Positions 35,872 through 58,270 are shown, counted from the first letter of the stretch. The stretch: DNA of 64,000 nt from Candidatus Saccharimonadales bacterium (GCA_035457485.1 DATIBO010000006.1:690659-754658), one strand, 5' to 3'. Notes: a model not told the origin generated them from the sequence alone. Program-made: numbers and translations.

Positions 35872-36005
35872 GTAAATATTTATAGGTTATAATAATGTAA
35901 ACCATCCTCGCTTACCGAAAGGGGAGTGGATGGATAAGTACAGTCACTCAATGTCAGCTGCCAACACCGCTATTAGCGCTAGATGTCAACTGGATGGAGG
36001 TAAAA

Positions 36006-36197
36006 ATGCCCCGCGATCCACGCTGGGGTAAGGGTCAGGACAACCACGTCCACGGAGCCGGCTGCTACGTTCAGAATTGTGGGATGCAGGAACACCAGCA
36101 TAGCGATTCCTGCTACAACCAAGACTACAGACTGAAGTGCGGCAGCACGATGCACCACCACTCCATGAGATGTAGGACCCTGAACTGCCCCAAGTGA
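36006..36197 (+). CDS. 63-aa Cys/His-rich small protein (putative metal-binding), GC-rich islet
   Basis: GGAGG SD 5 nt upstream of the ATG at 36006. The motif C-G-x3-H-x-H-x3-C occurs twice (CGMQEHQHSDSC, CGSTMHHHSMRC). Followed by its own terminator. Confidence 0.5.
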   Translation: MPRDPRWGKGQDNHVHGAGCYVQNCGMQEHQHSDSCYNQDYRLKCGSTMHHHSMRCRTLNCPK

Positions 36198-36202
36198 CTC
36201 CC

Positions 36203-36245
36203 GGCCCGCGTTTTGTTTGACACAAGCGCGGGCCATCTTTTATTG
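36203..36245 (+). terminator. terminator hairpin after the Cys/His gene
   Basis: GGCCCGCG (36203-36210) pairs with CGCGGGCC (36227-36234), followed by ATCTTTTATT. Confidence 0.6.
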
Positions 36246-36280
36246 AAATTATGCTGTATTTATTTTATAATATTCATAAC

Positions 36281-37222
36281 ATGAACTTCTGGCAAAATTT
36301 ACCGAAGCCTTTTTTTGTGCTCGCACCAATGGACGCCGTAACAGACACGGTTTTTAGACATGTTGTAGCAAAAGCAGCTCCGCCAGATGTTTACTTTACC
36401 GAGTTCACAAACACTGCGGCGTTTTATAGTGAGTTTGGACGCAAAAGCACTGAAACCAGACTGTTGTTTACTTCTGACGAACAGCCAATGGTCGCGCAAA
36501 TTTGGGGCACAAACCCAGAGCACTACGCATTTATGGCCAAAAATTTAGCCAAAATGGGATTTGCCGGGATTGATATTAACATGGGGTGTCCAGCAAAGGA
36601 TGTTGTAAAAACCGGCGCGTGCTCGGCCTTGATCGAGAACCCTGAGCTGGCCGCTAAACTCATCGCCGCAGCAAAGGAAGGTGGTTTGCCAGTAAGCGTA
36701 AAAACTCGCATAGGTTTTAAAACTCGCAAAACCGAAGAATGGATCAGCTTTTTATTAAACCAAGATCTTGCGGCGCTAACCGTTCATGGGCGTATCCAAA
36801 AAGATATGAGCATTCCACCAGCAGACTGGGACGAAATTGCCAAAGCCGTAAAAATGAGAGACAAAATAGCTCCGCAAACTTTAATAATTGGTAATGGCGA
36901 TGTCTTAAGCAAGCAGCACGGTATTGAGCTCGCCAAAAAAACTGGGGTGGATGGAATAATGATCGGACGTGGCGTTTTTACAAACCCATATTGCTTCGAG
37001 GAGTTACCCACCGAGCATAGCAGACAAGAACTTTTAGAATTACTGAAATTCCACTTGGATTTATATGAAAAAACTTGGCAGGGCCGTAAGATGCCTTTTG
37101 CACCACTAAAACGGTTCTTTAAGATTTACGTTCGTGACTTTGACGGCGCGGTCGATTTGCGCGTTTCGCTAATGGAAACAAAAAATATAGATGAAGTTCG
37201 TCAGATTTTAGCAAAAATCTAG
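36281..37222 (+). CDS. dus: tRNA-dihydrouridine synthase
   Basis: Motifs FVLAPMDAVTD, INMGCPAKDVVK (catalytic Cys) and HGRI. ATG at 36281 preferred over 36251. Confidence 0.85.
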   Translation: MNFWQNLPKPFFVLAPMDAVTDTVFRHVVAKAAPPDVYFTEFTNTAAFYSEFGRKSTETRLLFTSDEQPMVAQIWGTNPEHYAFMAKNLAKMGFAGIDINMGCPAKDVVKTGACSALIENPELAAKLIAAAKEGGLPVSVKTRIGFKTRKTEEWISFLLNQDLAALTVHGRIQKDMSIPPADWDEIAKAVKMRDKIAPQTLIIGNGDVLSKQHGIELAKKTGVDGIMIGRGVFTNPYCFEELPTEHSRQELLELLKFHLDLYEKTWQGRKMPFAPLKRFFKIYVRDFDGAVDLRVSLMETKNIDEVRQILAKI

Positions 37223-37269
37223 CATAAGCGATCTCTATTTGATAAGCTAGTGTCAAGTAAGGGGTAAAT

Positions 37270-38511
37270 ATGGAATCACAACACACACCAGCGTCTACCG
37301 GCGCTGCTAGCAATGGTTACGAGAGTAATCCTTTTAAAATTGTACTGCCGACCTTAAAAACTCTTTGGTCAAATGGTAAAAGCTCAATCTGGAAGATTCT
37401 TGGAATTCAAGTTCTTGTAATAGTTGGAGTAATTGCTGTTGGTGCAATAGCCATAGGTGCAATTTTAGTTTCGGCCTTTGGAATCTTTGCGGACTTTGTT
37501 GGCGGAGCAGAAAAAGCAGCGGAAGCGCTTTATACCATGGCGCCAGTTCCTTTAGACGCCGCAAACGCACTGATTTACGCCAAACCAATCGCAATAACGC
37601 TAGGGCTAACGTGCTTAGCAATCTTAACCATTTTAGTGGCGTTTATGCAGGCCCTTCAAATTGCGTATGTTAGTAAAACCATTATCAACAACGAAAAGCC
37701 AGGTGCTAAACAGGTTTTCGGCGTAGCCATTAGAAGAATGTGGCCAATGCTTGTGCAGTCGTTAGTGGTCTTTGCAGCGGTGTTTTTAGGAGTATTTTTA
37801 CCGTTAATGATCTTTGCGTTTCTGCCAGACGGAGTTGGCGCAGTTCTTATAGTTTTGTTCGTCCTTGCGTTTATTCCAGGGGTTTTTTATTTGACTGGTA
37901 GGTTTACAATGTCACCTTTTCCTGTTGTTAATTCTGACATGGGTCCAATCGCGGGATTAAAGCACAGCTGGGTAATTAGTAAAGGTAAAGTCAGCGAAGT
38001 TTGGGGTGCAATTTCTGTAGCGATGGCGGTGGCCACAGTGGCATCTTTTACTGTTAGTATAGTCTACGGATTACTTATCGGTCTTAATATCGCTTTAATT
38101 ACTATGGCAGCTATGATCGTCTCGCTCTTTGTGAGCGTTGGCGTCTCGCTAGGAGTTTCATCTATAATCGCAAAAAGATACGCGCAGATTGACCACGCGC
38201 ACAAAGCCGGCTTACATGGCCATAATATAAATTGGGGCGCTAATATTGGGGCAATTGCCTTGGCGATCGCAGTGTCGATTGCAGTTTCTTACTTAGATTC
38301 TTTAGTAAACCCAGCTCCAAACCTTGAAAACTTTAGTCCATCAGACTCAACAAGTGCACCTGCAAATGCCGATCTCGACGCCGAGCTTCAAGATATCTAC
38401 AACAACATAGACAAGTACCAAAATCAAAGTGGCGACTTACAGACTGATATGCCTTCGGATTTTAATTACGAACAATACTTTAACGAGCAGCTAAACAGCA
38501 GCGAGCTCTAG
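37270..38511 (+). CDS. polytopic membrane protein, unknown function
   Basis: 413 aa, 6 or more TM helices, low-complexity polar C-terminal tail. Confidence 0.5.
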   Translation: MESQHTPASTGAASNGYESNPFKIVLPTLKTLWSNGKSSIWKILGIQVLVIVGVIAVGAIAIGAILVSAFGIFADFVGGAEKAAEALYTMAPVPLDAANALIYAKPIAITLGLTCLAILTILVAFMQALQIAYVSKTIINNEKPGAKQVFGVAIRRMWPMLVQSLVVFAAVFLGVFLPLMIFAFLPDGVGAVLIVLFVLAFIPGVFYLTGRFTMSPFPVVNSDMGPIAGLKHSWVISKGKVSEVWGAISVAMAVATVASFTVSIVYGLLIGLNIALITMAAMIVSLFVSVGVSLGVSSIIAKRYAQIDHAHKAGLHGHNINWGANIGAIALAIAVSIAVSYLDSLVNPAPNLENFSPSDSTSAPANADLDAELQDIYNNIDKYQNQSGDLQTDMPSDFNYEQYFNEQLNSSEL

Positions 38512-39845: not shown

Positions 39846-39986
39846 CGTTAATTCCTATTTTAGCCGCAAAGCAAGCATCAGCTGGTTGGCTTTGCGACCA
39901 AAAGGGCGTAGTGAGTCAAGAAGCGTACGTTTGCCGTACGATTTTATCGAATGAATTATATCACTAGCTGCCCGTGTCGTAAAGGT

Positions 39987-40411
39987 TTATTTTATCCGAC
40001 GATGTCTGCGAAGCTCGGCCACTTTAAGGCGTAGTGTTTCGCGATCAACTAAAGTCTGAGCGTGAGCTAGCGAAATCCGATCTTTAGCCTCATCTTTTAA
40101 TTTTTGAGCTAGCTCTAGAGCCTTGCGTGATTCTTCTTCGATTATTTCGCTGCTGTGGAGGGCTTCGTCAACCAAAATTCTAAGCTCGTGCGACTTAATT
40201 TCGACGATCCCGCCTTCGGACGCAAAATGCTCGTAAACCTGAGCGGAGTCTCCCGCTTTATCTACAATCGTGATTACACCCGGCACAGCCACAGTTACTA
40301 GCGGCTCGTGGTTATCAAAAACGGCAATCGCCCCCGTTGCTGTCGGCAAAATCACTTGATAAACATCTTTATCAAACTTAACACCGTCGAGCGTTACAAG
40401 CTGCAAACGCA

Positions 40412-40412
<1 letters not shown>
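39987..40412 (-). CDS. atpC: F1 ATP synthase subunit epsilon
   Basis: 141 aa. Operon position after atpD. Beta-sandwich N-terminus plus helical C-terminus. Confidence 0.85.
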
Positions 40413-41947
<1,535 letters not shown>

Positions 41948-41948
<1 letters not shown>

Positions 41949-42808: not shown

Positions 42809-42811
42809 GGT

Positions 42812-45374: not shown

Positions 45375-45385
45375 CGCTTAACTCC

Positions 45386-45601: not shown

Positions 45602-45619
45602 ATTACTCCTTGTTTTTAC

Positions 45620-46504
45620 TTAACTTTCATTCGCTGCCGCAGTTTTTAACTTAGCAGGTTTGGAATGATCTGACTCATGCTCAGAGTGCTCGCCATGACT
45701 ACTTGTAGCCATGTTTAGATAAGCAGTCGTGAGCATAACAAAAATATAAGCCTGAATAGCACTAAAGAAAAGCTCCAAGAAGTAAACAGGAACTGTAGCA
45801 GCCCATCCAAAGGCTCCAGCCAATTGCCCAATTACATGAAGCAGAACTTCGCCGGCATAAATAACACCAAATAAACGCATGCTTAATGTAATAATTCGAA
45901 TAAATTCTCCCATAACTTCGATCAACCCCATAAAAAGGTTGATCGGGTTGTACGGTTTGTTTGTAAAGTAATTTTTTAAATGACCTAAAATCCCGAGCTC
46001 TTTTAGCGCGTAAAACTGAACTAAGCCAATCGAGAGTACCGCTAAAGCAATGGTGCCATTAAGGTCAGTAGTGAATGCGCGAAGTAGCGAAACTTCGCCA
46101 TGTTCGGTGTTCACAACAATCGTACCGACTCCCGGGATTAGTCCAGAAAGGTTCGCCAGTAAGATAAAACAAAATAGGCTTAACAGAAACGGCAAATGTT
46201 TTAAAGCCTTTTTACGACTATTAAAGCCCTCTTCAGCTGTATTTAAGATAAATTCAGCAATAGTTTCTAATGTAAAACTAAACATACTGGTTGGTTTTAG
46301 GTGGCTTTTTTTAACAGCTGCAAGTAAAATCAACACAACGGCCGCACCCGTAATTACGCCGAATAACATCGAATTAGTAACATTAAAGCTACCGATACTA
46401 AAAATTGTCTGCGCAGCGAGCGGAACACCACCCTCTGCTCCAAAAAAAGTTAATGCATTAAACACGGGCAAATCCCTTGGAAGCATATTCAGCAATAGTG
46501 TCAA
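45620..46504 (-). CDS. atpB: Fo ATP synthase subunit a
   Basis: SMRLFGVIYAGE contains the conserved Arg motif. 5-6 TM helices. The start could be an internal Met. Confidence 0.9.
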   Translation of the reverse strand: MTLLLNMLPRDLPVFNALTFFGAEGGVPLAAQTIFSIGSFNVTNSMLFGVITGAAVVLILLAAVKKSHLKPTSMFSFTLETIAEFILNTAEEGFNSRKKALKHLPFLLSLFCFILLANLSGLIPGVGTIVVNTEHGEVSLLRAFTTDLNGTIALAVLSIGLVQFYALKELGILGHLKNYFTNKPYNPINLFMGLIEVMGEFIRIITLSMRLFGVIYAGEVLLHVIGQLAGAFGWAATVPVYFLELFFSAIQAYIFVMLTTAYLNMATSSHGEHSEHESDHSKPAKLKTAAANES

Positions 46505-46647
46505 ATGGCATTTTCATCAGTTACCCCCAGTATACCAAGGAATGATTTACTGTAAACCCCTCGGTACGTTTTAGTTTTACCGTTTTTTATTTTATAATAT
46601 ACAAACTGCAGTATGCAGAGGTAAGTACTCGAGGGCAGGAGGCTTAA

Positions 46648-47064
46648 ATGGTCAATCCGACCACGCTTGCTGGTTTGATCGACGAGCACGCGAACGCGCT
46701 GGCCAGTCAGGTGCGAGCCCACTACTTGTGGACAGCCCAACTCGGTCGGAAGTCGGCGGCAGCGTTTAAAACCGCGAACGTAGCCGTAACTAATCCGTTC
46801 GGGCTGACGATCATCATCGGTATGCAGACCAACGAGCCGCAGGAGGGTGGCAGCAATCCTGTGACACGCAAGTGGGCAACCCTGACCATCAATGGCGTTC
46901 AGGATCCAACATTGCGAGCCCAGGTCACCGCCATCCTGTCGGCGCTGGAAACCTACGGGGTTTTCAGCATAAGCGGGAGTACCGTTACCTTCGGTTACAA
47001 GATCGAGACAACCGATCACGCCGAAGCGGTCACTAAAGCTTTGAACGCCGCCAACCGACGCTAA
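46648..47064 (+). CDS. hypothetical protein, GC-rich islet gene 1
   Basis: 138 aa. AGGAGG SD. Third codon positions are mostly G/C in this frame. No motif recognised. Confidence 0.55.
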   Translation: MVNPTTLAGLIDEHANALASQVRAHYLWTAQLGRKSAAAFKTANVAVTNPFGLTIIIGMQTNEPQEGGSNPVTRKWATLTINGVQDPTLRAQVTAILSALETYGVFSISGSTVTFGYKIETTDHAEAVTKALNAANRR

Positions 47065-47077
47065 AGGCGGGAGAGAA

Positions 47078-47578
47078 ATGAAAATCGTTAACTGGCTTTT
47101 AGACCGGTTTGCTACGGCTAAGACATGGGAGGGTCTCGGGCGATTCTGCGTGGAGATCTCTCTGGAGCTGAACCTCTGGTCGAACGAGGTAGCCGAGTGG
47201 CAAGCTGACCAGGTCCGCCTGGGACAAGCCAAGATCAGCACGACCACGACTCCCGGTCTTCGACGTGAGATCAAAGGAGCCGGCCTCAGAGCGACTCTAT
47301 ACCTGTCGAACGAGATCCGACCGGCGAACATCAGAGGATTCATGCTCCTGAGATCACTGCGTTTCGCCGACAACGAGCAGCCGCGTGGCCTCAAGCGAGC
47401 CTACGAGAACTGGCGCCTCGACAAAGTGATCGCGATGATCACGAACGACACGTTTGTCGGGGTGGTTCGCGACGAACATAGGGCGATGCGGCCGATCGAG
47501 CTCGAGTACCGTAGTGAGGGTTTCTCGTCTGCAATGCGGGCGTTCTCACTAGGAGCACAGCGCATGCCGCGCTCCTAG
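47078..47578 (+). CDS. hypothetical protein, GC-rich islet gene 2
   Basis: 166 aa. GGGAGAG SD. 13 nt after gene 1. Followed by a 12-bp-stem hairpin at 47586-47618. Confidence 0.55.
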   Translation: MKIVNWLLDRFATAKTWEGLGRFCVEISLELNLWSNEVAEWQADQVRLGQAKISTTTTPGLRREIKGAGLRATLYLSNEIRPANIRGFMLLRSLRFADNEQPRGLKRAYENWRLDKVIAMITNDTFVGVVRDEHRAMRPIELEYRSEGFSSAMRAFSLGAQRMPRS

Positions 47579-47678
47579 CACAATTGGGTGCCGTTCCAGC
47601 ATGATTGGAGCGGCACCCGCGGGTACTTACCGTATTCCGAAATTATAATGTATACTTTAAATATTAAGGAGTTTAACT

Positions 47679-47951
47679 ATGACCCCAACAATTGTTATGT
47701 ACAGTAGTCCAACTTGCGCATATTGTCATTTGGCCGCTGAATATTTTGAAAAACTTGGCTTAAAATTCACCGATAAAGACATAAGCCAAGATAGAGAAGC
47801 CTTAGAGTTTATTATGGAAAAAGTCGGTCAAGCCGTTACTCCAGTCATTACTATTAACGATACAATCATTATAGGTTTCGATAAGCCAAAAATCGACGAA
47901 GCTCTAGAAGAAGCTAAAAAAGCGAAACACAGCACAAAAGAAGAAAAATAA
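47679..47951 (+). CDS. glutaredoxin-like protein (NrdH/YruB type)
   Basis: 90 aa. Active site CAYC at the N-terminus of a thioredoxin fold, and TPVITIND. Confidence 0.75.
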   Translation: MTPTIVMYSSPTCAYCHLAAEYFEKLGLKFTDKDISQDREALEFIMEKVGQAVTPVITINDTIIIGFDKPKIDEALEEAKKAKHSTKEEK

Positions 47952-48448
47952 TGGACAAAAGCAAGATCTGGTGGGTGGTCGGAATTGTTGGAGCAATTAT
48001 TCTAATAAGTCTTTGGGTTTTACTTTTCATGACCCAAGATCAACCGTCCGCAAATCAACAAGACACCACTAACAGCACAATCCAAACAGCCCAGCCTACG
48101 ACTCAGCCAGATCAAGCCATTACACCAGTGCAAGCCGGCACGTATCAAAACTACAGCGCCGAGACATTGGCCACATCCAAGGCTAAGACAAACTTAATCT
48201 TCTTTTACGCACCGTGGTGCCCACAGTGTCGCGCTCTTGAAAAATCAATTGAACAAAGTGGCGTCCCAGAAAACATAGCAATTTTTAAAGTAGACTACGA
48301 CACTGCCACCGAATTAAAGAAAAAATACGGCGTTACAATTCAAACCACAATTGTTCAAGTTAATCCAGATGGCAGTCTGATTAAAAAACATGTTGCGTAC
48401 GATAATCCGGCGTTAACATCAGTGCTAAATGCTCTGGGAATCGAATGA
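47951..48448 (+). CDS. membrane-anchored thioredoxin-fold protein
   Basis: N-terminal TM helix, Q/T/P linker, active site WCPQC. Confidence 0.75.
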   Translation: MDKSKIWWVVGIVGAIILISLWVLLFMTQDQPSANQQDTTNSTIQTAQPTTQPDQAITPVQAGTYQNYSAETLATSKAKTNLIFFYAPWCPQCRALEKSIEQSGVPENIAIFKVDYDTATELKKKYGVTIQTTIVQVNPDGSLIKKHVAYDNPALTSVLNALGIE

Positions 48449-49164
48449 TTCAGTTGATAATTTTGTCATTTGTAGCCGGGGTAATGACTGTTTTAGCACC
48501 CTGTATTTTGTCTTTTTTACCAGTAATCGTAGGTGGTTCCTTAGTTCAGAGCGAGCGCAAAATCGTAAAGCCATTCATAATCACTCTCAGCCTGGGCGCT
48601 TCGATCGTGATTTTTACTTTATTATTGAAATTCAGCACCAGTCTACTTAGCGTTCCAACCCAAGTCTGGCAAGTTGCATCTGGAGTTATTATTATTTCTC
48701 TGGGATTGATCATGCTGTGGCCAAAATTATGGGAGACTTTAGGCGCAAAATTAAACCTTACCGGCAATAAATTACTAGGCAAGGCAGGTAAGAAACGTGG
48801 TCTTTTAGGCGACATCCTAACAGGTGTGGCGCTTGGACCGGTTTTCGCAAGTTGCAGCCCAACCTACGCTTTTATTGTGGCGGCAGTTTTGCCGTCGACG
48901 TTCGCAGTTGGACTTACTTATTTAGTAGCTTATGCAGCCGGTTTGAGCGCTGTCTTGCTATTGATTTCTTTGCTGGGACAAAAATTAGTTACAAAACTAA
49001 ACTGGGCAAGCAACCCCAACGGGTGGTTTAAAAAGGCGATTGGTATAATTTTTATTCTTGTCGGAATTTTTATTGCAACAGGACTAGATCATAAACTACA
49101 AGCGTTTTTGGTGAGTCAAGGCTGGTACGATCCCTTTTCGGCATTTGAACAAAGTCTTTTATAA
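48445..49164 (+). CDS. ccdA: CcdA/DsbD-family thiol-disulfide electron transporter
   Basis: 239 aa, 6 TM helices. Conserved Cys residues in VLAPCIL and FASCSP. Confidence 0.8.
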   Translation: MIQLIILSFVAGVMTVLAPCILSFLPVIVGGSLVQSERKIVKPFIITLSLGASIVIFTLLLKFSTSLLSVPTQVWQVASGVIIISLGLIMLWPKLWETLGAKLNLTGNKLLGKAGKKRGLLGDILTGVALGPVFASCSPTYAFIVAAVLPSTFAVGLTYLVAYAAGLSAVLLLISLLGQKLVTKLNWASNPNGWFKKAIGIIFILVGIFIATGLDHKLQAFLVSQGWYDPFSAFEQSLL

Positions 49165-49171
49165 TACAACA

Positions 49172-49759
49172 ATGGCCCTAGAAACAGATAAAGAATTTAA
49201 GAATTACAAAACCAAACCCAGCGTTGTGGTAGTTTACACTGGCGACAGCAAAGGCAAAACCAGCGCTAGCATTGGCTTGATGTGTCGCGCCCTCGGCACA
49301 GATTGGCGTGTTGCTTTTGTGCAGTTTATTAAACACTGGGAAGTAGGCGAGCACAAGTTTTTCAACAAAATCATACCCGTTATGGGCGATCAATTAGTGT
49401 TCTACAAAGGTGGAAAAGGTTTTTATAACGCCGGAGCGCTCAGCGCAAAACAGGTGAGTAATGACGACCATAGGAACGCAGCGTTACAAACTTACGAATT
49501 CGCACTTAAAAGCGTAAAAAGTGGAGAATTTAACCTTGTAATTTGCGATGAGATCAACAACGCCGTAAAAGATGGCTTACTTACCGCAAAACATTTAGAA
49601 AAACTAATCGACGCGCGCCAGGCGAACACAAGTCTATGCCTAACAGGCAGAAATTTCCCTAAAGAATTATTACCAAAAACCGATATTGTTACAAACATGG
49701 TAAAAATAAAACATCATTTTGACGAAAAATACCTTGCAAACGAGGGCATAGACTATTAA
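49172..49759 (+). CDS. cobO: cob(I)yrinic acid a,c-diamide adenosyltransferase (CobA/CobO/BtuR family)
   Basis: Motifs VVVYTGDSKGKTSA, FVQFIK, LVICDEINNAV. ATG at 49172 preferred over 49145. Confidence 0.75.
   Translation: MALETDKEFKNYKTKPSVVVVYTGDSKGKTSASIGLMCRALGTDWRVAFVQFIKHWEVGEHKFFNKIIPVMGDQLVFYKGGKGFYNAGALSAKQVSNDDHRNAALQTYEFALKSVKSGEFNLVICDEINNAVKDGLLTAKHLEKLIDARQANTSLCLTGRNFPKELLPKTDIVTNMVKIKHHFDEKYLANEGIDY
49733..49758 (+). repeat. 26-bp direct repeat, copy 1 (the last codons of cobO)
   Basis: CTTGCAAACGAGGGCATAGACTATTA, identical to 50373-50398. Confidence 0.95.
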
Positions 49760-49801
49760 GATACTTTGTAAGTAGCTCACTGGGGGTTAGGTTGTGGCTA
49801 A

Positions 49802-50032
49802 ATGGCCAAGGCTGGCAAGGATCGCGTACGCCAGGCGGCAGCGGGACTCGGGATCATCGGCATGATCTTCGGGGCTGGCAGCACGAGCGGCGGCGTTCCG
49901 AAGAAGACCTTCGACGCGGGTTCCTCGCTGTACCGCAGCGGGAGGAGTCAGCAGCGACAGCAGCAGAGCTCACACCTGCGGAGCGGCACCGACAGCTCGA
50001 ACCGCCGGCGCGGTGGCAGTGGCCAGCGCTGA
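49802..50032 (+). CDS. 76-aa GC-rich ORF (one hydrophobic segment, S/R/Q-rich tail), possibly a gene fragment
   Basis: G/C-dominated third codon positions in this frame. Low-complexity product. Confidence 0.3.
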   Translation: MAKAGKDRVRQAAAGLGIIGMIFGAGSTSGGVPKKTFDAGSSLYRSGRSQQRQQQSSHLRSGTDSSNRRRGGSGQR

Positions 50033-50125
50033 TGGTACGAGGATCTGACGAAAGCCGGATCTGACAATCATCAAAACAGGGCTGCTCATAATCATTCGTG
50101 ATATTGAGCAGCCCTGCAGTTAGAC

Positions 50126-50344
50126 TTAAAAACCCAAAACATCTTTGATTGATTCCATAGCATCGCTGAATTTATAATCCACAACTAGCATAATCCCTGC
50201 GATTGCAATCCCCACCGCAGGGATTATAACAATCAACCAGTCCCATTTTTGCGCTAATATCTGACTAGCGACAAATATAATAGCAGCCAGAGCCATAACA
50301 ATAATCACACCGCCAAGAATTTTCTTAAAAATATTTTTGTTCAT
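50126..50344 (-). CDS. small two-TM membrane protein
   Basis: 72 aa, two hydrophobic helices, AT-rich native-like composition. Confidence 0.45.
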   Translation of the reverse strand: MNKNIFKKILGGVIIVMALAAIIFVASQILAQKWDWLIVIIPAVGIAIAGIMLVVDYKFSDAMESIKDVLGF

Positions 50345-50372
50345 TCTGACATTCTAAGATTTATTAATAACT

Positions 50373-50398
50373 CTTGCAAACGAGGGCATAGACTATTA
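50373..50398 (+). repeat. 26-bp direct repeat, copy 2 (orphan cobO 3' end)
   Basis: Identical to 49733-49758. Here it is followed by G (TAG) instead of A (TAA). Confidence 0.95.
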
Positions 50399-50500
50399 GT
50401 ATGTTTGTGGGGAGTTCCGCTTCGGCGTGAGCTCTCCACCAGCTATTATTCGCGAGTAAAAACAATTGGGCGCTCACGGCGTCTTTTTTAAAGGAGTAGT

Positions 50501-50776
50501 ATGGCAGTAGAATCAGCTAGCCGTCCCTGGGAAATGGACGCGCCTAAAGATGCGGTGGCAGAATCAATGAGTGGTGTAAATTACGGCTACGAATGGGAGA
50601 AGCCGGGAGCTTGGGGTAGAGAGCACAACATCCCTGCCGAAGTTATGGCACAGATTGAGGTTTCGGCTCCATTTTTTGTGACATCTAAGATGGCTAAAAA
50701 AGCGATCACAATGGCAATCGGCCATCAACCGCAAATGCGCCCACTCGACCTAGAATCCGCTACAACTACTAGCTAA
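50501..50776 (+). CDS. hypothetical 91-aa protein
   Basis: AGGAG SD. No motif recognised. Confidence 0.4.
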   Translation: MAVESASRPWEMDAPKDAVAESMSGVNYGYEWEKPGAWGREHNIPAEVMAQIEVSAPFFVTSKMAKKAITMAIGHQPQMRPLDLESATTTS

Positions 50777-52019
50777 TCTTTTTGTATAGATCAATAATCT
50801 TTTTAGCTTGAGCTTTTTCGGATAACCTGCCAGCAATAATTTTACCCTTCGCAGACATGCTTTTTTGCAACTTGTCATCATTTAAGATTGCTGCAATCTT
50901 GTTGGCCATATCCTTGGCGTTGTTTTTACAGTAAAAGCCATTCTCGCCATTTTTAACGACCTCGCTCACTAACGGATCGCACATTACAATTGGCACGCCC
51001 GCCAATGCAGCCTCGTGTAAGACTAGCCCCTGAGTGTCACTGAGCGACGGGAAAGCAAAGACCTTTGCAATACTTAGCGGAATTCCGAGTTTTTCGCGTG
51101 GCATTCTGCCGGTAAAAATTATTCTAGCATTATTAGATTTCTTAGCATTTCTCTCGAGCGTCTCGCGGTAATCAAAATCACCTACAAAAATCAGCTTAGC
51201 ATTTGGACGCTTTTTGATTAAATCAGGCATCATGTCGATCAACAGATCTAAATTTTTTTCCTGACTTAAGCGCCCTACATAAATTACAACCTCGTCAGTT
51301 GGAGAAATTTTATACTTTTTGCAAAATTCATCTCGCTCTGTCTGGTTTGCCTTAGGCAATGGATCTACACCTGTAGGGATCAAATAAGTTCGATAATTAA
51401 ATTCATCTTTTTGCCAAGATGCCAACTGGCGCGCGCTCTTTTTGGAATGCACGATCACCGTATTGCAACTACTGTGAAGGATTGTCATTAAGTCACGAAT
51501 CAGGCTTTTATTCCATTTGCCAATACCGAGGCGCGGCCTACTGGATCGATAAAGCTCAAATAACTGATCTTTGGTCATGGGGATTGCCAGTGGCAAAAGC
51601 AAAAGCGCGGTAATCAAAACTGGCAACGCAAAAGGATAGTGTTCAACGTACTCAAACAGATCGGTGCAATACTCACTGACAACCGGAATTTTTAGCTCAT
51701 GCGCTGCGTAAAGCCCCATTAAGCCAACCTGGCCGGGTGTCAAAAAGTGAATCACATCAAGATCAAGCTTTTTAATATCATTTAAAAGCATTGGCGGAAA
51801 AAACAGCGGCGTGTTTAAATCGTTGAAAAGACCGCCCTTAAAAGTGGGAAATTTGTAAACATGAACGTCGGCTGTCTGTTCGATTCGTAAGCCTTCGCCC
51901 GGCGCAAACACAAACACCTCATGACCCAATAGGGTAAAGTTATGGCGCAAGATATCTACAACCGACACTACCCCGTTGATTGACGGATGGTATGTATCGG
52001 TAAAAATTCCGATTTTCAT
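50769..52019 (-). CDS. glycosyltransferase family 4
   Basis: 416 aa. N-terminus KIGIFTDTYHPSINGV, C-terminus FPSLSDTQGLVLHEAALAGVPIV (GT-B EX7E region). Confidence 0.8.
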   Translation of the reverse strand: MKIGIFTDTYHPSINGVVSVVDILRHNFTLLGHEVFVFAPGEGLRIEQTADVHVYKFPTFKGGLFNDLNTPLFFPPMLLNDIKKLDLDVIHFLTPGQVGLMGLYAAHELKIPVVSEYCTDLFEYVEHYPFALPVLITALLLLPLAIPMTKDQLFELYRSSRPRLGIGKWNKSLIRDLMTILHSSCNTVIVHSKKSARQLASWQKDEFNYRTYLIPTGVDPLPKANQTERDEFCKKYKISPTDEVVIYVGRLSQEKNLDLLIDMMPDLIKKRPNAKLIFVGDFDYRETLERNAKKSNNARIIFTGRMPREKLGIPLSIAKVFAFPSLSDTQGLVLHEAALAGVPIVMCDPLVSEVVKNGENGFYCKNNAKDMANKIAAILNDDKLQKSMSAKGKIIAGRLSEKAQAKKIIDLYKKIS

Positions 52020-52101
52020 TTACTCTTAGTATAGCATTCGTCAGGTGGTTTAAGAAGCCGAAACTCCCCAAACCGCTAACGGTTTGCTAGAATATAATCA
52101 A

Positions 52102-53139
52102 ATGAAAAAACCAAAACCAGTAAAATTTACTAAGCAAAAATGGGTTAGAGTTGTTGCAGTTATTTTGGCAATTTTAGGCACAATTTTTGTAATTTTCGCA
52201 TTGTTGTATGCGTTTGTCTTTACTCCTGTAAAAAACCCAAGATATGGCGTAAGTTTCGTCAAAGAACGAGCCGAAGAGTATGATCTTGACTGGCGCGAAA
52301 ATTACCTGGCGCTTTTAGATGATCTAAAAATACGCAATTTTAGGCTAGTTAGTTACTGGAGTGCACACGAGCCAAAACGCGGTGAGTTCGATTTTAGCGC
52401 ACTAGATTGGCAAATGGACGAAGCAGCAAAGCGCGGCGCAAAAGTGAGTTTGTCTATAGGTATGCGTCAGCCGCGCTGGCCAGAATGCCACGAACCCGGT
52501 TGGGCACATTTACTAGGCGGCCACGAGTGGAAGCAAGCTCTTTATGCCTACATGGAAATCGTGGTTAACCGGTACAAAAATCACCCTGCACTCGAAAGTT
52601 ATCAACTAGAAAACGAAGCGGTAAACAATTGGTTTGGAACTTGCCGCGAGCCCGATCGAGAGCGTTTAATAGAAGAGTTTAATTTTGTAAAACAATGGGA
52701 TCCAAACCACCCTATTTACATGAGTCTAAGCGACCAGCATGGCATACCGGTAAACCAACCGGTGCCAGACAAATACGGCTACTCAGTTTATCGCTGGCTC
52801 TGGAACGACAAAACCGTGCCAAATGGTTATATTTTGTACCCGACTCCAATTTGGTATCACCGATTACGAGCTGAAGTAATTAAACTAACCAAAAATCGCG
52901 ACATTTTTATCCACGAATTACAGATGGAGCCGTGGGGACCCGAAGAAACTAAGAACTTAAGCATCGAAGAACAAAACCGATCCATGAGCGTAGACCAAAT
53001 TCCTAAGTCGTTTGATTTTGGGCGACGCATCGGCAGTCCGGACATTAGTCTTTGGGGCGGCGAATGGTGGTACTGGCGCAAAGTAAACGGGGATGCTAGT
53101 ATCTGGGAGAAAGTTCGCGAACAATTAAACGCCCCATGA
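52102..53139 (+). CDS. membrane-anchored putative glycoside hydrolase (TIM-barrel, GH5/GH42-like)
   Basis: N-terminal TM helix. YQLENEAVN (an NE acid/base-type motif) and HELQMEPW (a candidate nucleophile Glu). Confidence 0.45.
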   Translation: MKKPKPVKFTKQKWVRVVAVILAILGTIFVIFALLYAFVFTPVKNPRYGVSFVKERAEEYDLDWRENYLALLDDLKIRNFRLVSYWSAHEPKRGEFDFSALDWQMDEAAKRGAKVSLSIGMRQPRWPECHEPGWAHLLGGHEWKQALYAYMEIVVNRYKNHPALESYQLENEAVNNWFGTCREPDRERLIEEFNFVKQWDPNHPIYMSLSDQHGIPVNQPVPDKYGYSVYRWLWNDKTVPNGYILYPTPIWYHRLRAEVIKLTKNRDIFIHELQMEPWGPEETKNLSIEEQNRSMSVDQIPKSFDFGRRIGSPDISLWGGEWWYWRKVNGDASIWEKVREQLNAP

Positions 53140-53966
53140 AAAATCAGATCAACATCTTTGGAAGCACTGTCAAGTATTGGGTTTTTAATGCCGATAAGCC
53201 TAAGACCTTGGTTATGATCCACGGTTTTAGGGGGACGCATCATGGCTTGCAGCTGATAATCGACCGTTTGCCGGACTTTAAAATAATCATCCCTGATCTC
53301 CCTGGCTTTGGCGAATCGACTCCGCTTAAAAACAAGCCACATACAATAAACGGTTACTGCGACTTTTTAAAAGAATTTATCAAACGAGTAGCGCCCGAAC
53401 AGCCCTTTTTATTGGGTCACTCGTTTGGATCAATTATAGTCAGCCATTTTGCAGCAAAAAACCCAAACGCAATCAGCAAATTGATTTTGATTAACGCTAT
53501 CGCCGAACCCCCGCTAAAGGGCCCGCAAAAAGTAGCCACTAAGATTGCAGTTTTATATTATTGGCTAGGGCAAAAACTACCACAAAAAATGGGCGAAAAA
53601 ATGCTACGAAGCAAAATCGTCATATTTGGCGCCAGTTTATTGATGACAACTACCAAAGATAAAGCGCTGCGCAAATTTATCCACGAAAATCATTTAAAAT
53701 ACTTTAGTACTTTTCAAGATCGCGACACTTTGCGTGAAGCTTTTGAAGCCAGCACAAAAAATACTGCGAGCGACAAAGCTGACGTCATTAAGGTTCCAAC
53801 ACTAATGATCGCAGGCGAGCTTGATAAAATTGCACCCTTAAGAAGTCAGCACAACTTAGTAAAAATAATTCCTGACGCCCAGTTGGTTGTTTTTAAAGCT
53901 GGGCACCTGATTCATCACGAGGCGCCAACCGAAGCTGCTAGCTCGATACGAAACTTCTTAACTTAG
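53136..53966 (+). CDS. alpha/beta hydrolase
   Basis: Motifs HGFRGTHH, GHSFGS nucleophile elbow, C-terminal GHLIHHE. Confidence 0.75.
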   Translation: MKNQINIFGSTVKYWVFNADKPKTLVMIHGFRGTHHGLQLIIDRLPDFKIIIPDLPGFGESTPLKNKPHTINGYCDFLKEFIKRVAPEQPFLLGHSFGSIIVSHFAAKNPNAISKLILINAIAEPPLKGPQKVATKIAVLYYWLGQKLPQKMGEKMLRSKIVIFGASLLMTTTKDKALRKFIHENHLKYFSTFQDRDTLREAFEASTKNTASDKADVIKVPTLMIAGELDKIAPLRSQHNLVKIIPDAQLVVFKAGHLIHHEAPTEAASSIRNFLT

Positions 53967-55164
53967 CCGAAAACGGTTTACGTGGCTTGTAGTTTTTTAA
54001 AACCTCGGCGTAAATTTCTTCGAATCGAGTTAGGGTAAATTCCAGATCATGAGTTTTGGCAATTCTAAGTGCCTGAACCCCCATATTAGATTGAAGTTTT
54101 TCGTCTTTTAAGATCGCTATGATTTTTGTAGACATACTTTTAGAATCATCAGGTTTACACAAATAACCATTCAGGCCATCTTGGCAAAGTTCGTGCAGGG
54201 CACCGGCGTTAACTGCAACCGATGGCAAACCGGTCGCCATAGCCTCAAGCAAAGTTAAGCACTGAAGTTCGGCAGGTGAGGGCATTACGAAAACAGTTCC
54301 GCATCTGTAAAGTGGCGCCAAGTCTTCGTCGTCAACTCGGCCAGTCATTGTTACATTACTAAGTAGGTCGAATTCGCGAATAAGCTCGCGCAGGTTTTCG
54401 GCATCATTACCATGTCCAACAATCACCAAGTGTGCATCTATCTCGGCCAAAACTTTTGGCATAGCACGCACTAAGGTGCTAATGTGTTTTTCTCCGTCAA
54501 CGCGACCAACATATAAAATTATTGGTTTATTTTTTGGGATTCCGAAGTAACTCTTAAACTGCGCCTTTACCTCGCCAGGCGAAAAGCGACTCAAATCAAT
54601 TCCGTTAGAAACTGCCTCGAGCGGCATCTTGAACTCTTTTTCATCTAAAAACATTTTAACGGCAGCCTGGGTTGGCATAGTTATATAGTCAACGTTACTA
54701 TGAAAACGCAAACCGTACTCTTTAACTAAACTTGCAAGCGGTTCAGCAAAGGGCGCCATCAACCTCATTTGCTTAAGATTGTCTTGGACGTTCTCGGGCA
54801 TCGCGTGATTAGTGGCGACGACAGGAATATTAAGTTTTCGAGCTGAATTACGAGCCGCTAAACCCAGTCCGAGCGGAGTTTGGATATGAACGAGGTCAGG
54901 TTTAAAGTCCGTAATTATTTTTTTAACCTCTGGCTGAGGATTCAAAACCATGCGGTAATTGGGAAAAAACGGGAAGGGGATAGAAGTTGTTCGCGCAATC
55001 TGGTAGTTGTCGTCAGTTTCGACAAATTTTTTACCATCCTGCGAAGGTGCGATCACCAAAACTTCATGGCCACGCGCTGACAGACCCTTAGCTAAGTTTC
55101 GGGTAAAAGTTGCTATTCCGTTAATCGCCGGCCAGTATAAATCGCATGCAAGAACAATACGCAT
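53938..55164 (-). CDS. glycosyltransferase family 4
   Basis: 408 aa. N-terminus MRIVLACDLYWPAINGIA, C-terminus MPSPAELQCLTLLEAMATGLPSV. Confidence 0.8.
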   Translation of the reverse strand: MRIVLACDLYWPAINGIATFTRNLAKGLSARGHEVLVIAPSQDGKKFVETDDNYQIARTTSIPFPFFPNYRMVLNPQPEVKKIITDFKPDLVHIQTPLGLGLAARNSARKLNIPVVATNHAMPENVQDNLKQMRLMAPFAEPLASLVKEYGLRFHSNVDYITMPTQAAVKMFLDEKEFKMPLEAVSNGIDLSRFSPGEVKAQFKSYFGIPKNKPIILYVGRVDGEKHISTLVRAMPKVLAEIDAHLVIVGHGNDAENLRELIREFDLLSNVTMTGRVDDEDLAPLYRCGTVFVMPSPAELQCLTLLEAMATGLPSVAVNAGALHELCQDGLNGYLCKPDDSKSMSTKIIAILKDEKLQSNMGVQALRIAKTHDLEFTLTRFEEIYAEVLKNYKPRKPFSAKLRSFVSS

Positions 55165-55199
55165 ATCTTGTATTGTATATTATAATATAGCCAAAGCGT

Positions 55200-56384
55200 A
55201 TGAAAATAGCCTTAGTTACAGACTTTTATTTACCTAGCCTTGGGGGTTTACAGACTTCCACGGTTAATCAGCGTAAAGCGCTCGAAAACAGCGGTAACGA
55301 GGTTTTTGTATTTACAGCAAAGTACGATAAAGCAGAGCCCACTGACGATAGTCACGTTATTAGAGTGACCAGTAGGAATATGCCGGGCCTAGGTTTCCCG
55401 GTAGTATCGCCATCGGAAAAGTTAAAAAGCTTTTTGTTAAAAGAATTTTCAAAGCGCAAAATTGATGTTATTCATATTCAAACCGAATTTGGTCTAGCGC
55501 AGACCGCGATGTGGGCAGGCAACGAGCTGGGAATTCCTGTTTTTTATACTTCACACACTTACTCCTGGAAAACCGCTTATCCGATTCCGCGACTCCAAGC
55601 AAAAGTTATTCAAATTTTTTACAGATTTTTGTTTGGAACAGACCTAAAAATGGTCGACAGCATTCCGGGCGAGGACAGTGCTTCGCGCGCCCTGCGTAGT
55701 ATCCGAACAGTGGTTAACAAGCGAGCTGACGTTTTAATTTGCCCATCAAAGCATATGTTCGAAGCACTAAATCCTGAGCGCGACCAAAAACCTGGTTTTG
55801 TGGTTCCTAACCCGGTTACAGCAATCAGTAAGCTCGCACCAAGACCTCTACCAGAAGTGGTTCGGTTTGTTTGGCCATCGCGCATAGAGCCAGAGAAGAG
55901 GATTTTAGAATTTATCGAAGCAGTTTTAATTGCAAACAAGTTAACTAAAATACCGTTTTTTGTCGATATCATTGGCGAGGGTGCGCTACTCGAAAAAGCC
56001 AAGCTATTGGCCGAGGGAGCAAAAAATATAAAATTCCATGGACGTTTAACGCAAGATCAAACGGTCACAATTATGGATAAAGACAGCTTAGTCGTGATCT
56101 CATCAAGCGGCTACGACAACCAGCCAATGATTATCGCCGAAGCACTGAGCAGAGACAGGGGAGTGCTTTACTGCGACCCAAACTTAAACGACAGCCTTAA
56201 AAAAGCTGGGTATTTGTCTGGCGACCAACCAAAGCAACTTGCACGAGCGATTAAAGAATTAGTTGAAGATCCAAGCAAAATCAAAGCCCTAGCTGAGGCC
56301 GCGAAAGTCAATAAAGATCAGTTTTCAGAGCAAACTTACAGCCAAACAATCACTGATCTTTATAAAAAGTTCGCCTCTAAATAA
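55200..56384 (+). CDS. glycosyltransferase family 4
   Basis: 394 aa. N-terminus MKIALVTDFYLPSLGGLQ, C-terminal GT-B domain. Confidence 0.75.
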   Translation: MKIALVTDFYLPSLGGLQTSTVNQRKALENSGNEVFVFTAKYDKAEPTDDSHVIRVTSRNMPGLGFPVVSPSEKLKSFLLKEFSKRKIDVIHIQTEFGLAQTAMWAGNELGIPVFYTSHTYSWKTAYPIPRLQAKVIQIFYRFLFGTDLKMVDSIPGEDSASRALRSIRTVVNKRADVLICPSKHMFEALNPERDQKPGFVVPNPVTAISKLAPRPLPEVVRFVWPSRIEPEKRILEFIEAVLIANKLTKIPFFVDIIGEGALLEKAKLLAEGAKNIKFHGRLTQDQTVTIMDKDSLVVISSSGYDNQPMIIAEALSRDRGVLYCDPNLNDSLKKAGYLSGDQPKQLARAIKELVEDPSKIKALAEAAKVNKDQFSEQTYSQTITDLYKKFASK

Positions 56385-56467
56385 CCTATACTTTTTGTGC
56401 AAAATATTATATAGTATGTAAGCTCTAAGAGTACCTTTTAGCTTTGTCCTACATTGGAGGTGGCTCC

Positions 56468-57418
56468 ATGCTTTGGAGCACAGCCCAGAGAACAATTCTG
56501 GGCATGCAACTCGCCGGACTTGGCGTCGTGGGACTATACCACGCGTGCATGATGTTCGGGCGAGTAAACCCGGTTGGGAGGATCGGGGTAGCTGTCGGTG
56601 CGGTCATCTGTCTGCTTTTCGTCAGTAACGGCGTAGGCATGGCGGACTTCGTTACGCCGACGCGGCCGACGATCTTCCGATCGTCCAACGGACACGCGGA
56701 TCTATTCTTCGTGCCGGGCTACAACGGCAACTCGCAGTCCCTGCACGAGATCCTGGCCCCCTGGACCCGACCCTACGCGACCGCTGGTATCCAGTACGCG
56801 CCTGGTCGCTTCGACGGAGCGCAGGCCGAGCTGGCTGTGCGAGACTTCATCCGAGAACACGGACCCGAGGTCGTCTACAGTGAGTCGATGGGTGCGCCAA
56901 TCGTTCTGGGAGCTCTGCGCCGCGGAGCAACGATCGACACCTGGGTCATCAACGCTGGCCCGGCGAGCCCTTCCAACGTGCGGCCGTGGCAGACGATCAT
57001 CGGATCGATCATGCACGGTGGCCCCGGCCTCACCGCACTGATGCAGCTCGGTCAGAGGGCTTCGATCAACTGGATAACCACCGACGCCAGTCGCATGCCG
57101 GCCAGCCAGGCCGCATACGAACGAAGCACTCATCTGACGTCGCCAATGGCGTTCGGCATGATGGAGTACCTGCGCAGCTTCGAACCGGTTCAACCGGGCG
57201 AGCTCGTCGGCAAGGTTCGCCGGGTGATCTTCGTCAGCGCTCCAGGGGAGTACGACGACCGGATCAACACCGCGAATGCAAGTGGTCGCTGGATGCTGGC
57301 ATCCGGTACGATGTATTCGCGCCGGATCCTCAGCAAGGTTCCGCGTCACGGTCACTGCATGACACCGGAGTACCCAGAAGGCGTCGGAACTGTGCTGTAC
57401 GAACTGCTCGAAAGCTAA
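56468..57418 (+). CDS. membrane-anchored alpha/beta-hydrolase-like protein, GC-rich islet
   Basis: GGAGGTGG SD before the ATG at 56468. Two N-terminal TM helices, YSESMGA nucleophile-elbow-like motif, C-terminal HGHC. A 10-bp-stem hairpin lies at 57424-57463. Confidence 0.55.
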   Translation: MLWSTAQRTILGMQLAGLGVVGLYHACMMFGRVNPVGRIGVAVGAVICLLFVSNGVGMADFVTPTRPTIFRSSNGHADLFFVPGYNGNSQSLHEILAPWTRPYATAGIQYAPGRFDGAQAELAVRDFIREHGPEVVYSESMGAPIVLGALRRGATIDTWVINAGPASPSNVRPWQTIIGSIMHGGPGLTALMQLGQRASINWITTDASRMPASQAAYERSTHLTSPMAFGMMEYLRSFEPVQPGELVGKVRRVIFVSAPGEYDDRINTANASGRWMLASGTMYSRRILSKVPRHGHCMTPEYPEGVGTVLYELLES

Positions 57419-57621
57419 AAGGCTGCGCCCGCAAACCCCATAAAAAGGGTCACTGCGGGCGCAAAAGCCCATGAAATTATTTAACAGATCATAATTATTT
57501 GCTAACAGAGGTGTATTTATGTACATAATCATTGCTTTTTTAACATAAACATGTTATAGTATTTATCACGTTGGAGGGTAACCCTACTCTTCGACAGAAA
57601 CTTCCCATCTGAGGAGACATT

Positions 57622-58155
57622 GTGAACCGGATCATCCGCAACGTTGGCATGTTGCTGGCCTCGGCTGCCCTCGTGGCCGCCTGCGCCGACACCGCCAACG
57701 AGCCCGTCCAGTCGACCCCCGTGGTCGCTACGCCGTACGCCGCACTCAACCCGAGCCCGGCGCCGGCAGGCATCGAGAACTGCGAGAACATCCCCCTGCA
57801 GAGCAGCAACTTCCACAACGGAGAGTGGCTGCAGATGGGAGCTAGCAACCTGACGTTCTCGATCGACGCCACGATTACCCCCAAAGGCAAGAACAGCTTC
57901 ATCATCACCTTCGACTTCAACGGTCACCGTGACGAGCAGTTCGCCGCATGGTTCGGCAAGGTCGACACCGCGAACCCCCGCAACATCAGCTGGAAGCTCT
58001 ACAGCGCCCAGCTGATGGAGCAGGGCGTGACGGTCGACAACGGCCGCTACACGATCTTCCAGGTCTTCGCGGATCCGTCCGCGTGCCCGGTCCCCATGAT
58101 CGGCGGGCTCGTCATTGACGAGCTCAAGGCCGCGGGTCAGTGGCCCACAAACTAA
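57622..58155 (+). CDS. lipoprotein of unknown function, GC-rich islet
   Basis: GTG start after GAGGAG. Signal peptide with lipobox LVAAC. An 11-bp perfect-stem hairpin lies at 58169-58204. Confidence 0.6.
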   Translation: MNRIIRNVGMLLASAALVAACADTANEPVQSTPVVATPYAALNPSPAPAGIENCENIPLQSSNFHNGEWLQMGASNLTFSIDATITPKGKNSFIITFDFNGHRDEQFAAWFGKVDTANPRNISWKLYSAQLMEQGVTVDNGRYTIFQVFADPSACPVPMIGGLVIDELKAAGQWPTN

Positions 58156-58225
58156 GTCTCCTCGTTGGCCGCGAGCGCCCTGGCACCCGCCTAGGCGCTC
58201 GCGGAAACGAGCCTAAAATTATTCA

Positions 58226-58250: not shown

Positions 58251-58270
58251 TTAAGATATACTTACATCAG

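Follow-up and report, generated by a model that had tools for sequence, protein, structure and literature searches.

In this study, we analyzed a 64-kb window (the whole stretch of DNA under analysis, DATIBO010000006.1:690659-754658 of GCA_035457485.1; overall GC content 44.8%) from a Candidatus Saccharimonadales metagenome-assembled genome (MAG), an origin that agrees with the Saccharibacteria type a first-pass annotation had supposed from the sequence alone. The window contains five short GC-rich islets, I1 to I5, which carry six open reading frames (ORFs; I2 has two, I2a and I2b), whose products are recorded as hypothetical proteins under locus tags VLA77_04245 to VLA77_04320. Probably, the islets are accessory transcription units that were horizontally acquired or exchanged and that occupy the variable slots between genes in an otherwise conserved Saccharimonadales backbone. 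Judged by the GC content of third codon positions (GC3), their source pool has a GC content of about 60-72%. Each islet sits in an intergenic gap between stretches of native sequence and consists, in order, of a promoter, a leader, one or two ORFs and a hairpin; together with GC3 and tetranucleotide composition, this promoter-to-hairpin layout upholds the earlier proposal that the islets are complete, compositionally foreign gene units.

The compositional step at the islets is pronounced. In a 200-nt profile GC content rises there from about 0.37-0.45 to 0.55-0.67, and with 150-nt windows, stretches above 0.56 that exceed ~250 nt in length occur at just four places in the 64 kb, 35955-36239, 46599-47648, 49736-50129 and 56438-58254, runs elsewhere reaching ~220 nt at most. 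The edges of the islets are sharp at both ends, to within a few tens of bases. Native genes have a GC3 of 0.426 ± 0.037 (n = 45; maximum 0.535), against 0.70-0.90 for the islet ORFs (z = 7.3-12.7; Table 1), and the tetranucleotide distances of all five islets lie above the maximum of size-matched native windows. In the GC-normalised dinucleotide signature the pooled islets stand at a delta* of 0.17 from native DNA, and I2, I4 and I5 are mutually close (delta* 0.06-0.08). A third-position GC peak is present in the + strand ORFs and absent from the antisense ORFs, so the latter are the usual high-GC artefact and the former are the coding frames. Five islets unlike their flanks, with GC-rich third positions in + strand ORFs, were what the first-pass annotation had described, and these analyses confirm it. 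The location of all six ORFs on the + strand is not significant by itself (~0.06 for five independent islets).

As the genome is metagenome-assembled, it could be argued that GC-rich reads of another organism were joined into the contig during assembly or binning. We consider such a chimera extremely unlikely. It would need five separate insertions, each comprising exactly a leader, ORF and terminator within an intergenic gap, and it would have to coincide with the existence of positional homologues of I4 in other genomes. In addition, a Logan contig produced by another assembler (SRR25158331_103800) has 100% identity to window positions 46468-64000 (17.5 kb), a region that includes I2 to I5. 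The identity of this independent assembly and the functional organization at every junction indicate that the islets are assembly-genuine.

An AT-rich -10 box of native type lies to the left of all five islets, and the extended consensus TTTTTTATTTTATAATATA in which the I2 box is embedded is also found at native promoters (repeat families D2 and D3). The leaders are 40-110 nt long and a small stem-loop is usually possible in them, such as CCATCC...GGATGG in the I1 leader and CTGCAGTATGCAG directly downstream of the -10 box of I2. A Shine-Dalgarno sequence (SD) of the form GGAGG or GAGGAG is spaced 5-7 nt from the start codons of I1, I2a, I4 and I5, and I2b has GGGAGAG. A GGAGG-like SD had been claimed for every ORF, which holds for the five of six with a strong SD and fails for I3, whose SD is weak and has no canonical GGAGG. 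Some native genes have -10 boxes that lie 2-12 nt from the start codon with no SD (22331-22339, 36266-36283 and 55181-55202), which suggests that they have leaderless or very short-leader mRNAs, in contrast to the islets, where leaders are long and carry an SD. We also considered GTAAGTA/TAAGTA upstream of I1 to I4 as a shared motif and dropped it, as it occurs at three of the five islets only and is common across the window.

At their 3' ends, the five islets have hairpins that fold better than shuffled sequences (z from -2.9 to -7.2), and when the + strand is folded in sliding windows along all 64 kb, no intergenic hairpins are stronger than the four of I2 to I5. Relative to a canonical intrinsic terminator, in which a stem is followed by a U-tract, the T-run is missing in four of the five. 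The earlier description of a long GC-rich stem without a U-tract after each islet is therefore accurate for these four but not for I1, whose tail is U-rich. Native genes had been said to use short stems with T-runs instead, and this is so for the three terminators that had been cited, at 24444-24470 (- strand), 29572-29600 (- strand) and 58226-58250. However, the gene of native composition at 29824-30267 also has a terminal GC-rich hairpin with no T-run, and the feature is consequently not exclusive to the islets. Sequence similarity among the five hairpins is not above that of shuffles, and they therefore do not represent a shared recombination site. The idea of a common insertion mechanism acting through the hairpin fails accordingly. 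Equivalent hairpins, GC-rich and lacking a T-run, are also present downstream of the homologues of the I4 gene in three other genomes (L003, L134 and L135).

The heptamer AAATTAT is situated 4-20 nt past the hairpins of four of the five islets (I1, I2, I4 and I5). Sharing of any 7-mer by four of five windows was seen once in 20,000 trials with random intergenic windows and 13 times in 20,000 trials with AT-rich ones (about 5e-5 to 6.5e-4). The same heptamer is located at 29606-29612 (- strand), 2 nt past the 3' end of tRNA-Gln, the sole match in an Rfam scan, and at 30310-30316, ~12 nt past the GC-rich hairpin (30280-30298) that ends the native gene at 29824-30267. AAATTAT is therefore part of the recipient's own 3'-end context and not an insertion scar, and in this genome it appears to be associated with the 3' ends of structured RNAs. 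Downstream of the copy at I5 are the native short-stem terminator at 58226-58250 and then the conserved SmpB promoter. The right flank of I4 (57463-57481, CAAAAGCCCATGAAATTAT) closely resembles part of a classical native terminator at 21367-21399 (CAAAGCCCATGAACTTAATCATGGGCTTTG plus T-run), namely its left arm and loop, and the 12-mer AAAGCCCATGAA is common to both; this likeness may be due to chance or may be a remnant of a disrupted native terminator.

Evidence for the manner by which one unit arrived was found at I3. A perfect 26-nt direct repeat, CTTGCAAACGAGGGCATAGACTATTA, bounds a segment of ~614 bp that consists of I3, its hairpins and p72, the gene of an AT-rich membrane protein whose stop codon is abutted by the I3 hairpins and which has no homologue in related loci. 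The left copy of the repeat forms the last codons of a CobA/BtuR-like gene, and the base following the repeat (A on the left, G on the right) completes a stop codon at each copy, TAA and TAG, respectively. The left copy supplies a -35 box, TTGCAA, which is separated by a 17-nt spacer from the -10 box TAAGAT in a promoter that faces I3. In the right copy the palindromic TTGCAA (50374-50379) is the apparent -35 box for both p91 on the + strand (-10 box TAGTAT, 50397-50402) and p72 on the - strand (-10 box TAGAAT). The p72 promoter is apparently leaderless, and the p91 leader has a hairpin at 50403-50441 (-26 kcal/mol). On the basis of this arrangement, I3 and p72 appear to be a recent duplicative insertion or Campbell-type integration after which the newcomer and the old downstream gene both keep a promoter. 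The segment has similarities to genomic islands that integrate at the 3' ends of genes and whose attachment-site core becomes a direct repeat, in that its left repeat copy coincides with a gene's 3' end and the in-frame stops are retained. It differs from them in being only ~614 bp long, in having a repeat that doubles as a promoter, in having no tRNA and in encoding no recombinase, I3 and p72 being its only genes. No significant flanking repeat was found at I1, I2, I4 or I5; an inverted pair around I2 (GGTAAGTAC...GTACTTACC) is a single 9-mer pair, and a 44-nt similarity between the promoter regions of I4 and I5 is not significant (p = 0.13).

The setting of the islets was examined by comparison with ~130 related loci, mostly from Saccharibacteria, that were collected by a scan of GTDB genomes with SmpB and of JGI metagenomes with the CobA/BtuR-like protein (a GTDB scan with the GT4 protein found no relative because that protein is too variable). 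Across these loci the order of the backbone is kept as ATPa (- strand), slot, Grx, Trx, p239, CobA, slot, GH42 ... SmpB, and the length and content of the slots vary between genomes. No tblastn match to I1, I2a, I2b, I3 or I5 was obtained in the ~130 loci, the relatives having at most 71% identity. GC-rich islets next to conserved genes are also present in other Saccharimonadales or Patescibacteria-like genomes, at L002 8389-8796, L005 7197-7526 and 3749-4218, L004 1959-3377, L134 6147-7639 and L003 10526-11155, with GC3 up to 0.83. The islet phenomenon is therefore not unique to this genome, although it is denser here. In the interval from UDG to PNPase, L133, L004 and L005 also differ in whether an islet is present.

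I4 is the only islet protein for which relatives were found. The start of its gene is the ATG at 56468 and not the TTG at 56444, in keeping with the 316-aa product on record. The AlphaFold (AF2) model of this protein (pLDDT 94, pTM 0.91) has two N-terminal helices followed by an alpha/beta-hydrolase domain, and it has 608 matches in the PDB at E <= 0.001, of which the best 50 are almost all alpha/beta hydrolases. The closest structures are lidded carboxylesterases and the RsbQ/D14 group, including CesB/YbfK of B. subtilis (4ccy), FphH of S. aureus (8tav), RsbQ (1wom) and plant D14/KAI2, all of which have the same fold (Foldseek probability 1.0, TM 0.5-0.6). I4 and the lidded carboxylesterases have in common a nucleophile elbow E-S-x-G, a G-Y-N-G oxyanion region and the Ser-Asp-His triad. 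They differ in the two-helix membrane anchor at the N-terminus of I4 and in sequence, which is 11-17% identical. None of the curated family models (Abhydrolase_1/6 and Hydrolase_4 of Pfam; NCBIfam) matches I4 at E <= 0.1. In an alignment of 25 family sequences G84, S140, D263 and H296 are invariant and E139 and G142 nearly so. Based on the invariant triad and the structural model, the I4 product is predicted to be an intact membrane-anchored serine hydrolase.

A word-index protein search with I4 returned only itself, whereas phmmer, run exhaustively against 1.84 billion representatives, identified a family of 30 proteins with ~25-32% identity. This search gave no actinobacterial homologue and none from outside the clade of the recipient. 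Genomic context could be examined for ten (including L002, an 899-kb contig; L003, GCA_029288315.1; L004; L005; and L133-L137), nine of which are Saccharimonadales or Patescibacteria-like; all are low- or mid-GC, as in the low-GC organism L137, and none is high-GC. In three Saccharimonadales genomes (the window, L003 and L134) an I4-family gene holds the slot upstream of SmpB in the shared order GH42-like, Abhydrolase_1, GT4, [I4 homologue], SmpB, AA_kinase, Exo_endo_phos, and the hydrolases of these genomes are just 30-33% identical compared with 58-65% for SmpB. L136 is a relative of L003, with a GT4 that is 69% identical; here the homologue lies after that GT4 and shares 44% identity with its L003 counterpart. 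A second slot, between RNaseJ and UDG, holds the homologue in L005, L133 and L135; in L004 it adjoins UDG and the contig ends upstream. L004, L005, L133 and L135 form one clade (PNPase 85-92%, UDG 78-92% and RNase J 75-80% identical), whereas their hydrolases are 32-43% identical. Overall, positional homologues of I4 are 30-44% identical beside flanking genes that are 58-92% identical.

The I4 family also resembles the window copy in its composition and layout. In eight of eight genomes, whose background GC contents range over 0.39-0.57, the family gene has a higher GC3 than any gene flanking it, with a margin of +0.11 to +0.32 that is at its extreme in the window copy; two further contexts show smaller margins, +0.04 in L136 and +0.08 in L137. 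No GC3 gradient is seen in the genes that flank members of the family. A promoter, a small stem-loop and a leader with GGAGGTGA recur upstream of I4-family genes in other genomes. In L003 there is a nearly perfect inverted repeat of ~117 nt (5797-5913) just upstream of the promoter of the I4 homologue, and the gap between the homologue and SmpB (7322-7851) is filled by a pair of small minus-strand paralogues, both Cys-pair (zinc-ribbon-like) ORFs. We considered, because of a WhiB domain in L133, whether L133, L004 and L005 might be from Actinobacteria and rejected this: PNPase scores 668 bits against Caulobacter and 527-538 against Mycobacterium and Streptomyces, and the L133 PNPase is closer to proteobacterial and firmicute PNPases than to actinobacterial ones. 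WhiB (PF02467) is normally actinobacterial or from actinophages. The WhiB-domain gene of L133 (12827-12978), on a contig with a PNPase of non-actinobacterial type, is possibly a host-derived gene in a Patescibacteria-like genome.

With respect to the origin of the islets, the GC3 values imply source GC contents of ~60-63% for I1, I2 and I4, 67% for I3 and 72% for I5. The Saccharimonadales loci that we compared have GC contents of 38-58% and median GC3 of up to 0.76, so higher-GC members of the order could supply I1, I2 and I4. The GC3 of I5 (0.90) and I3 (0.82) is above that range, and these two may conceivably stem from a donor of very high GC content, such as an actinobacterial host. The source pool of I4 would be other Saccharimonadales or Patescibacteria and not the host, because a hypervariable positional homologue exists in related genomes and is GC3-enriched wherever it is present. 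None of the islet proteins tested gave a homologue in Actinobacteria, phages or plasmids, the phage and plasmid searches having been made with I2a, I2b and I5. Detected transfers into Patescibacteria are mostly from other Patescibacteria, and in one aquifer study Actinomycetota accounted for only 1 of 130 events (PMC12455944).

Several observations count against acquisition of the islets by horizontal transfer or exchange, or limit how far it can be generalized. No donor lineage was found for any islet, in searches that were exhaustive for I4 alone and used only a word index for I5. The nearest relatives are distant (SmpB ~57-63% and CobA at best 71% identical), and relatives at or below the latter value give no view of empty sites or exact insertion boundaries. 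The pooled dinucleotide signature of the islets is at a delta* of at least 0.11 from high-GC Saccharimonadales and of 0.05-0.07 from unrelated high-GC bacteria, in a comparison that had low power and no actinobacterial control. The GC content of first codon positions (GC1) is 4-16 points under the GC3-based expectation in all six ORFs. This deficit is the reverse of classical amelioration, and a local GC3-raising process fits it about as well as transfer does. Finally, the window is 64 kb of an 889,392-bp contig.

The first-pass annotation had proposed the islets as candidate acquisitions by an epibiont from its host. Under this explanation all of them would derive from the genome of an actinobacterial host of high GC content and would have been retained for acting on the envelope or binding metals. 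GC-rich hairpins lacking a U-tract are reportedly common in Actinobacteria, and the GC3 values of I5 and I3 are beyond the highest Saccharimonadales locus median. The genome is of the Saccharimonadales, and the Saccharibacteria in culture live on Actinobacteria and have natural competence (PMC10633639). Despite this, we regard direct host transfer as unlikely. The proteins tested have no actinobacterial homologue and there are no matches in phages, plasmids, PHROGs, PADLOC or Pfam; I5 retrieves itself alone in the word-index search and has the amino-acid make-up of a low-GC proteome (FYMINK 0.27, the same as native) with a GC1 16 points below expectation. In addition, the promoters are AT-rich and of Saccharimonadales type, and members of the I4 family in three related genomes have the same kind of T-run-less hairpin. 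Restriction of the best hits to the same lineage had been named beforehand as an outcome that would refute host derivation, and for I4 this is the outcome obtained. As judged from homology and context, host-to-epibiont transfer thus appears unsupported in general and contradicted for I4.

A different explanation is that the islets are native genes, fast-evolving, lineage-specific and long resident at recombination hot spots, and that their GC content was raised locally, either by frequent allele exchange through transformation with GC-biased gene conversion or by selection on codons or mRNA structure. The GC3 excess of the I4 family whatever the genomic background, the low identity of its positional homologues beside well-conserved flanks and the GC1 deficit of all six ORFs fit such a process. 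We nevertheless find it quite unlikely, as the edges of the islets are sharp, flanking genes have no GC3 gradient, a GC3 of 0.90 in I5 against 0.43 in native genes is an extreme shift, an insertion is marked at I3 by the perfect repeat, and I1, I2, I3 and I5 are without a counterpart in any related locus. Very unlikely, in our assessment, is a dedicated cassette system, either integron-like or a small non-autonomous mobile element, in which one enzyme would recombine at the hairpins. The repeated format of an ORF and hairpin on the same strand, the AAATTAT after four of five hairpins and the direct repeat around one unit speak for such a system, and like the islets, integron gene cassettes are short units of an ORF plus a hairpin in one orientation. 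However, the islets are dispersed among housekeeping genes with a promoter each, their hairpins have no common core, AAATTAT also follows a tRNA and a native gene, the islets other than I3 lack significant flanking repeats, and no integrase-like product occurs among the Pfam-annotated genes of 46.4-64 kb.

In our preferred interpretation, the exchange of accessory units through intergenic slots, DNA may enter by natural transformation and would integrate at or beside promoters. Natural transformation has been demonstrated by experiment in cultivated Saccharibacteria, whose competence relies on ComEC and in which cassettes become integrated at intergenic sites (PMC10633639). The I3 and p72 segment would be one recent case, in which a 26-bp promoter-bearing target was duplicated and the newcomer and the old downstream gene each received a promoter. 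The deletion bias of a streamlined genome would then trim all but the selected unit. The cassette-like look of the islets is attributable to complete small transcription units together with this deletion bias, and not to a shared recombination hairpin. Comparable islets have been described in Patescibacteria (PMC12455944; McLean et al. 2020, PMC7427843), where deviant accessory genes also occupy variable slots in very small syntenic genomes, the products are mostly hypothetical and transfers are mostly within Patescibacteria. The islets described here differ in being smaller (0.3-1 kb) and denser (five in 22 kb), in their GC3 jump of up to +0.47, in being tidy promoter-leader-ORF-hairpin units and in having no detectable donor.

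Among the products of the remaining islets, I2a, I2b and I5 are orphans. None of the six islet proteins has a meaningful match in Pfam, NCBIfam, PHROGs or PADLOC, and those present in the protein collection are all singleton clusters (I1 is not in the collection). I2a and I2b are unmatched among PDB sequences and IMG/VR viral contigs, I5 has only a non-significant PDB match (E = 0.36), and searches of 50,697 phage and 72,556 plasmid records with I2a, I2b and I5 gave no match. The word-index search with I5 gave no protein other than itself, and its single-sequence structure model is too poor for use (pLDDT 35). The N-terminus of I5 consists of MNRIIRN, a hydrophobic stretch and L-V-A-A-C21, which by inspection agrees with the lipobox [LVI][ASTVI][GAS]C, and I5 is therefore predicted to be a lipoprotein-type product. 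The assignments made earlier of a lipoprotein (I5), a membrane-anchored hydrolase (I4) and a Cys/His peptide (I1) are all retained. An atpZ/atpI-like membrane-protein gene (~90 aa, minus strand) is located just upstream of the ATP synthase a-subunit in L090, L097, L099, L104, L106, L115 and L119; window positions 46505-46647 have no trace of it, and the slot is taken by I2.

Table 1. Features of islets I1 to I5 and of the repeat-bounded segment at I3 (positions in the window; z, GC3 relative to native genes).
Feature	Position	Strand	GC3	z	Description
I1 -10 box	35888..35893	+			TATAAT; 112 nt upstream of ORF
I1 ORF	36006..36197	+	0.75	8.7	63 aa, Cys/His-rich, three H-x-H...C...C repeats; SD GGAGG 5 nt upstream
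I1 3' GC hairpin	36203..36234	+			U-rich tail AUCUUUUAUU, then AAATTAT 36246-36252
I2 -10 box	46593..46598	+			TATAAT; within recurrent promoter consensus TTTTTTATTTTATAATATA
I2a ORF	46648..47064	+	0.70	7.3	138 aa, orphan
I2b ORF	47078..47578	+	0.71	7.7	166 aa, orphan, own SD; two-gene unit with I2a
I2 3' GC hairpin	47585..47619	+			-33 kcal/mol, no U-tract; AAATTAT 47640-47646
Direct repeat, left copy	49733..49758	+			Last codons of CobA/BtuR-like gene
I3 -10 box	49757-49762	+			TAAGAT
I3 ORF	49802..50032	+	0.82	10.5	76 aa, one hydrophobic segment and Ser/Gly/Arg/Gln-rich tail; weak SD
I3 3' region, two stacked hairpins	50030-50073, 50077-50116	+			-43 kcal/mol together
p72 gene	50126..50344	-			AT-rich 72-aa membrane protein, inside repeat-bounded segment
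Direct repeat, right copy	50373..50398	+			Apparent -35 box for p91 and p72
I4 -10 box	56410..56415	+			TATAGT; short stem-loop leader
I4 ORF	56468..57418	+	0.74	8.4	316 aa, predicted N-terminal helical membrane hairpin and alpha/beta-hydrolase domain; Ser140-Asp263-His296 triad
I4 3' GC hairpin	57421..57469	+			-30 kcal/mol, no U-tract; AAATTAT 57474-57480
I5 -10 box	57555..57560	+			TATAGT; in 135-nt AT-rich spacer between I4 and I5
I5 ORF	57622..58155	+	0.90	12.7	177 aa, GTG start, orphan, predicted signal peptide and lipobox LVAAC (Cys21)
I5 3' GC hairpin	58161..58211	+			-36 kcal/mol, strongest in window; AAATTAT 58216-58222

A more specific reading, which we put forward as doubtful but conceivable, is that the window combines a hypervariable membrane-anchored hydrolase locus for host interaction, fed by a GC-rich pool or by GC-biased conversion, with promoter-duplicating insertion of foreign ORFs. 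If this were true, the GC3 enrichment of I4 would point to continual allele replacement from a GC-rich pool, or to recombination-driven GC-biased conversion, at host-interaction loci of epibionts with natural competence, and promoter-duplicating insertion would let a newcomer be expressed at once with no silencing of the old downstream gene. In the tiny and highly syntenic genomes of Saccharibacteria, the small set of genes that vary includes the foremost candidates for roles in host recognition and exploitation. The window shows where such variable genes enter, which is at defined intergenic slots, and the form they take, which is that of complete small transcription units for proteins that are apparently envelope-directed or small and binding. 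The I4 family, being rare, hypervariable, membrane-anchored, catalytically intact by prediction and GC-enriched everywhere, is a candidate for an enzyme of the epibiont-host interface, and as Saccharibacteria are now genetically manipulable, this idea can be put to the test.

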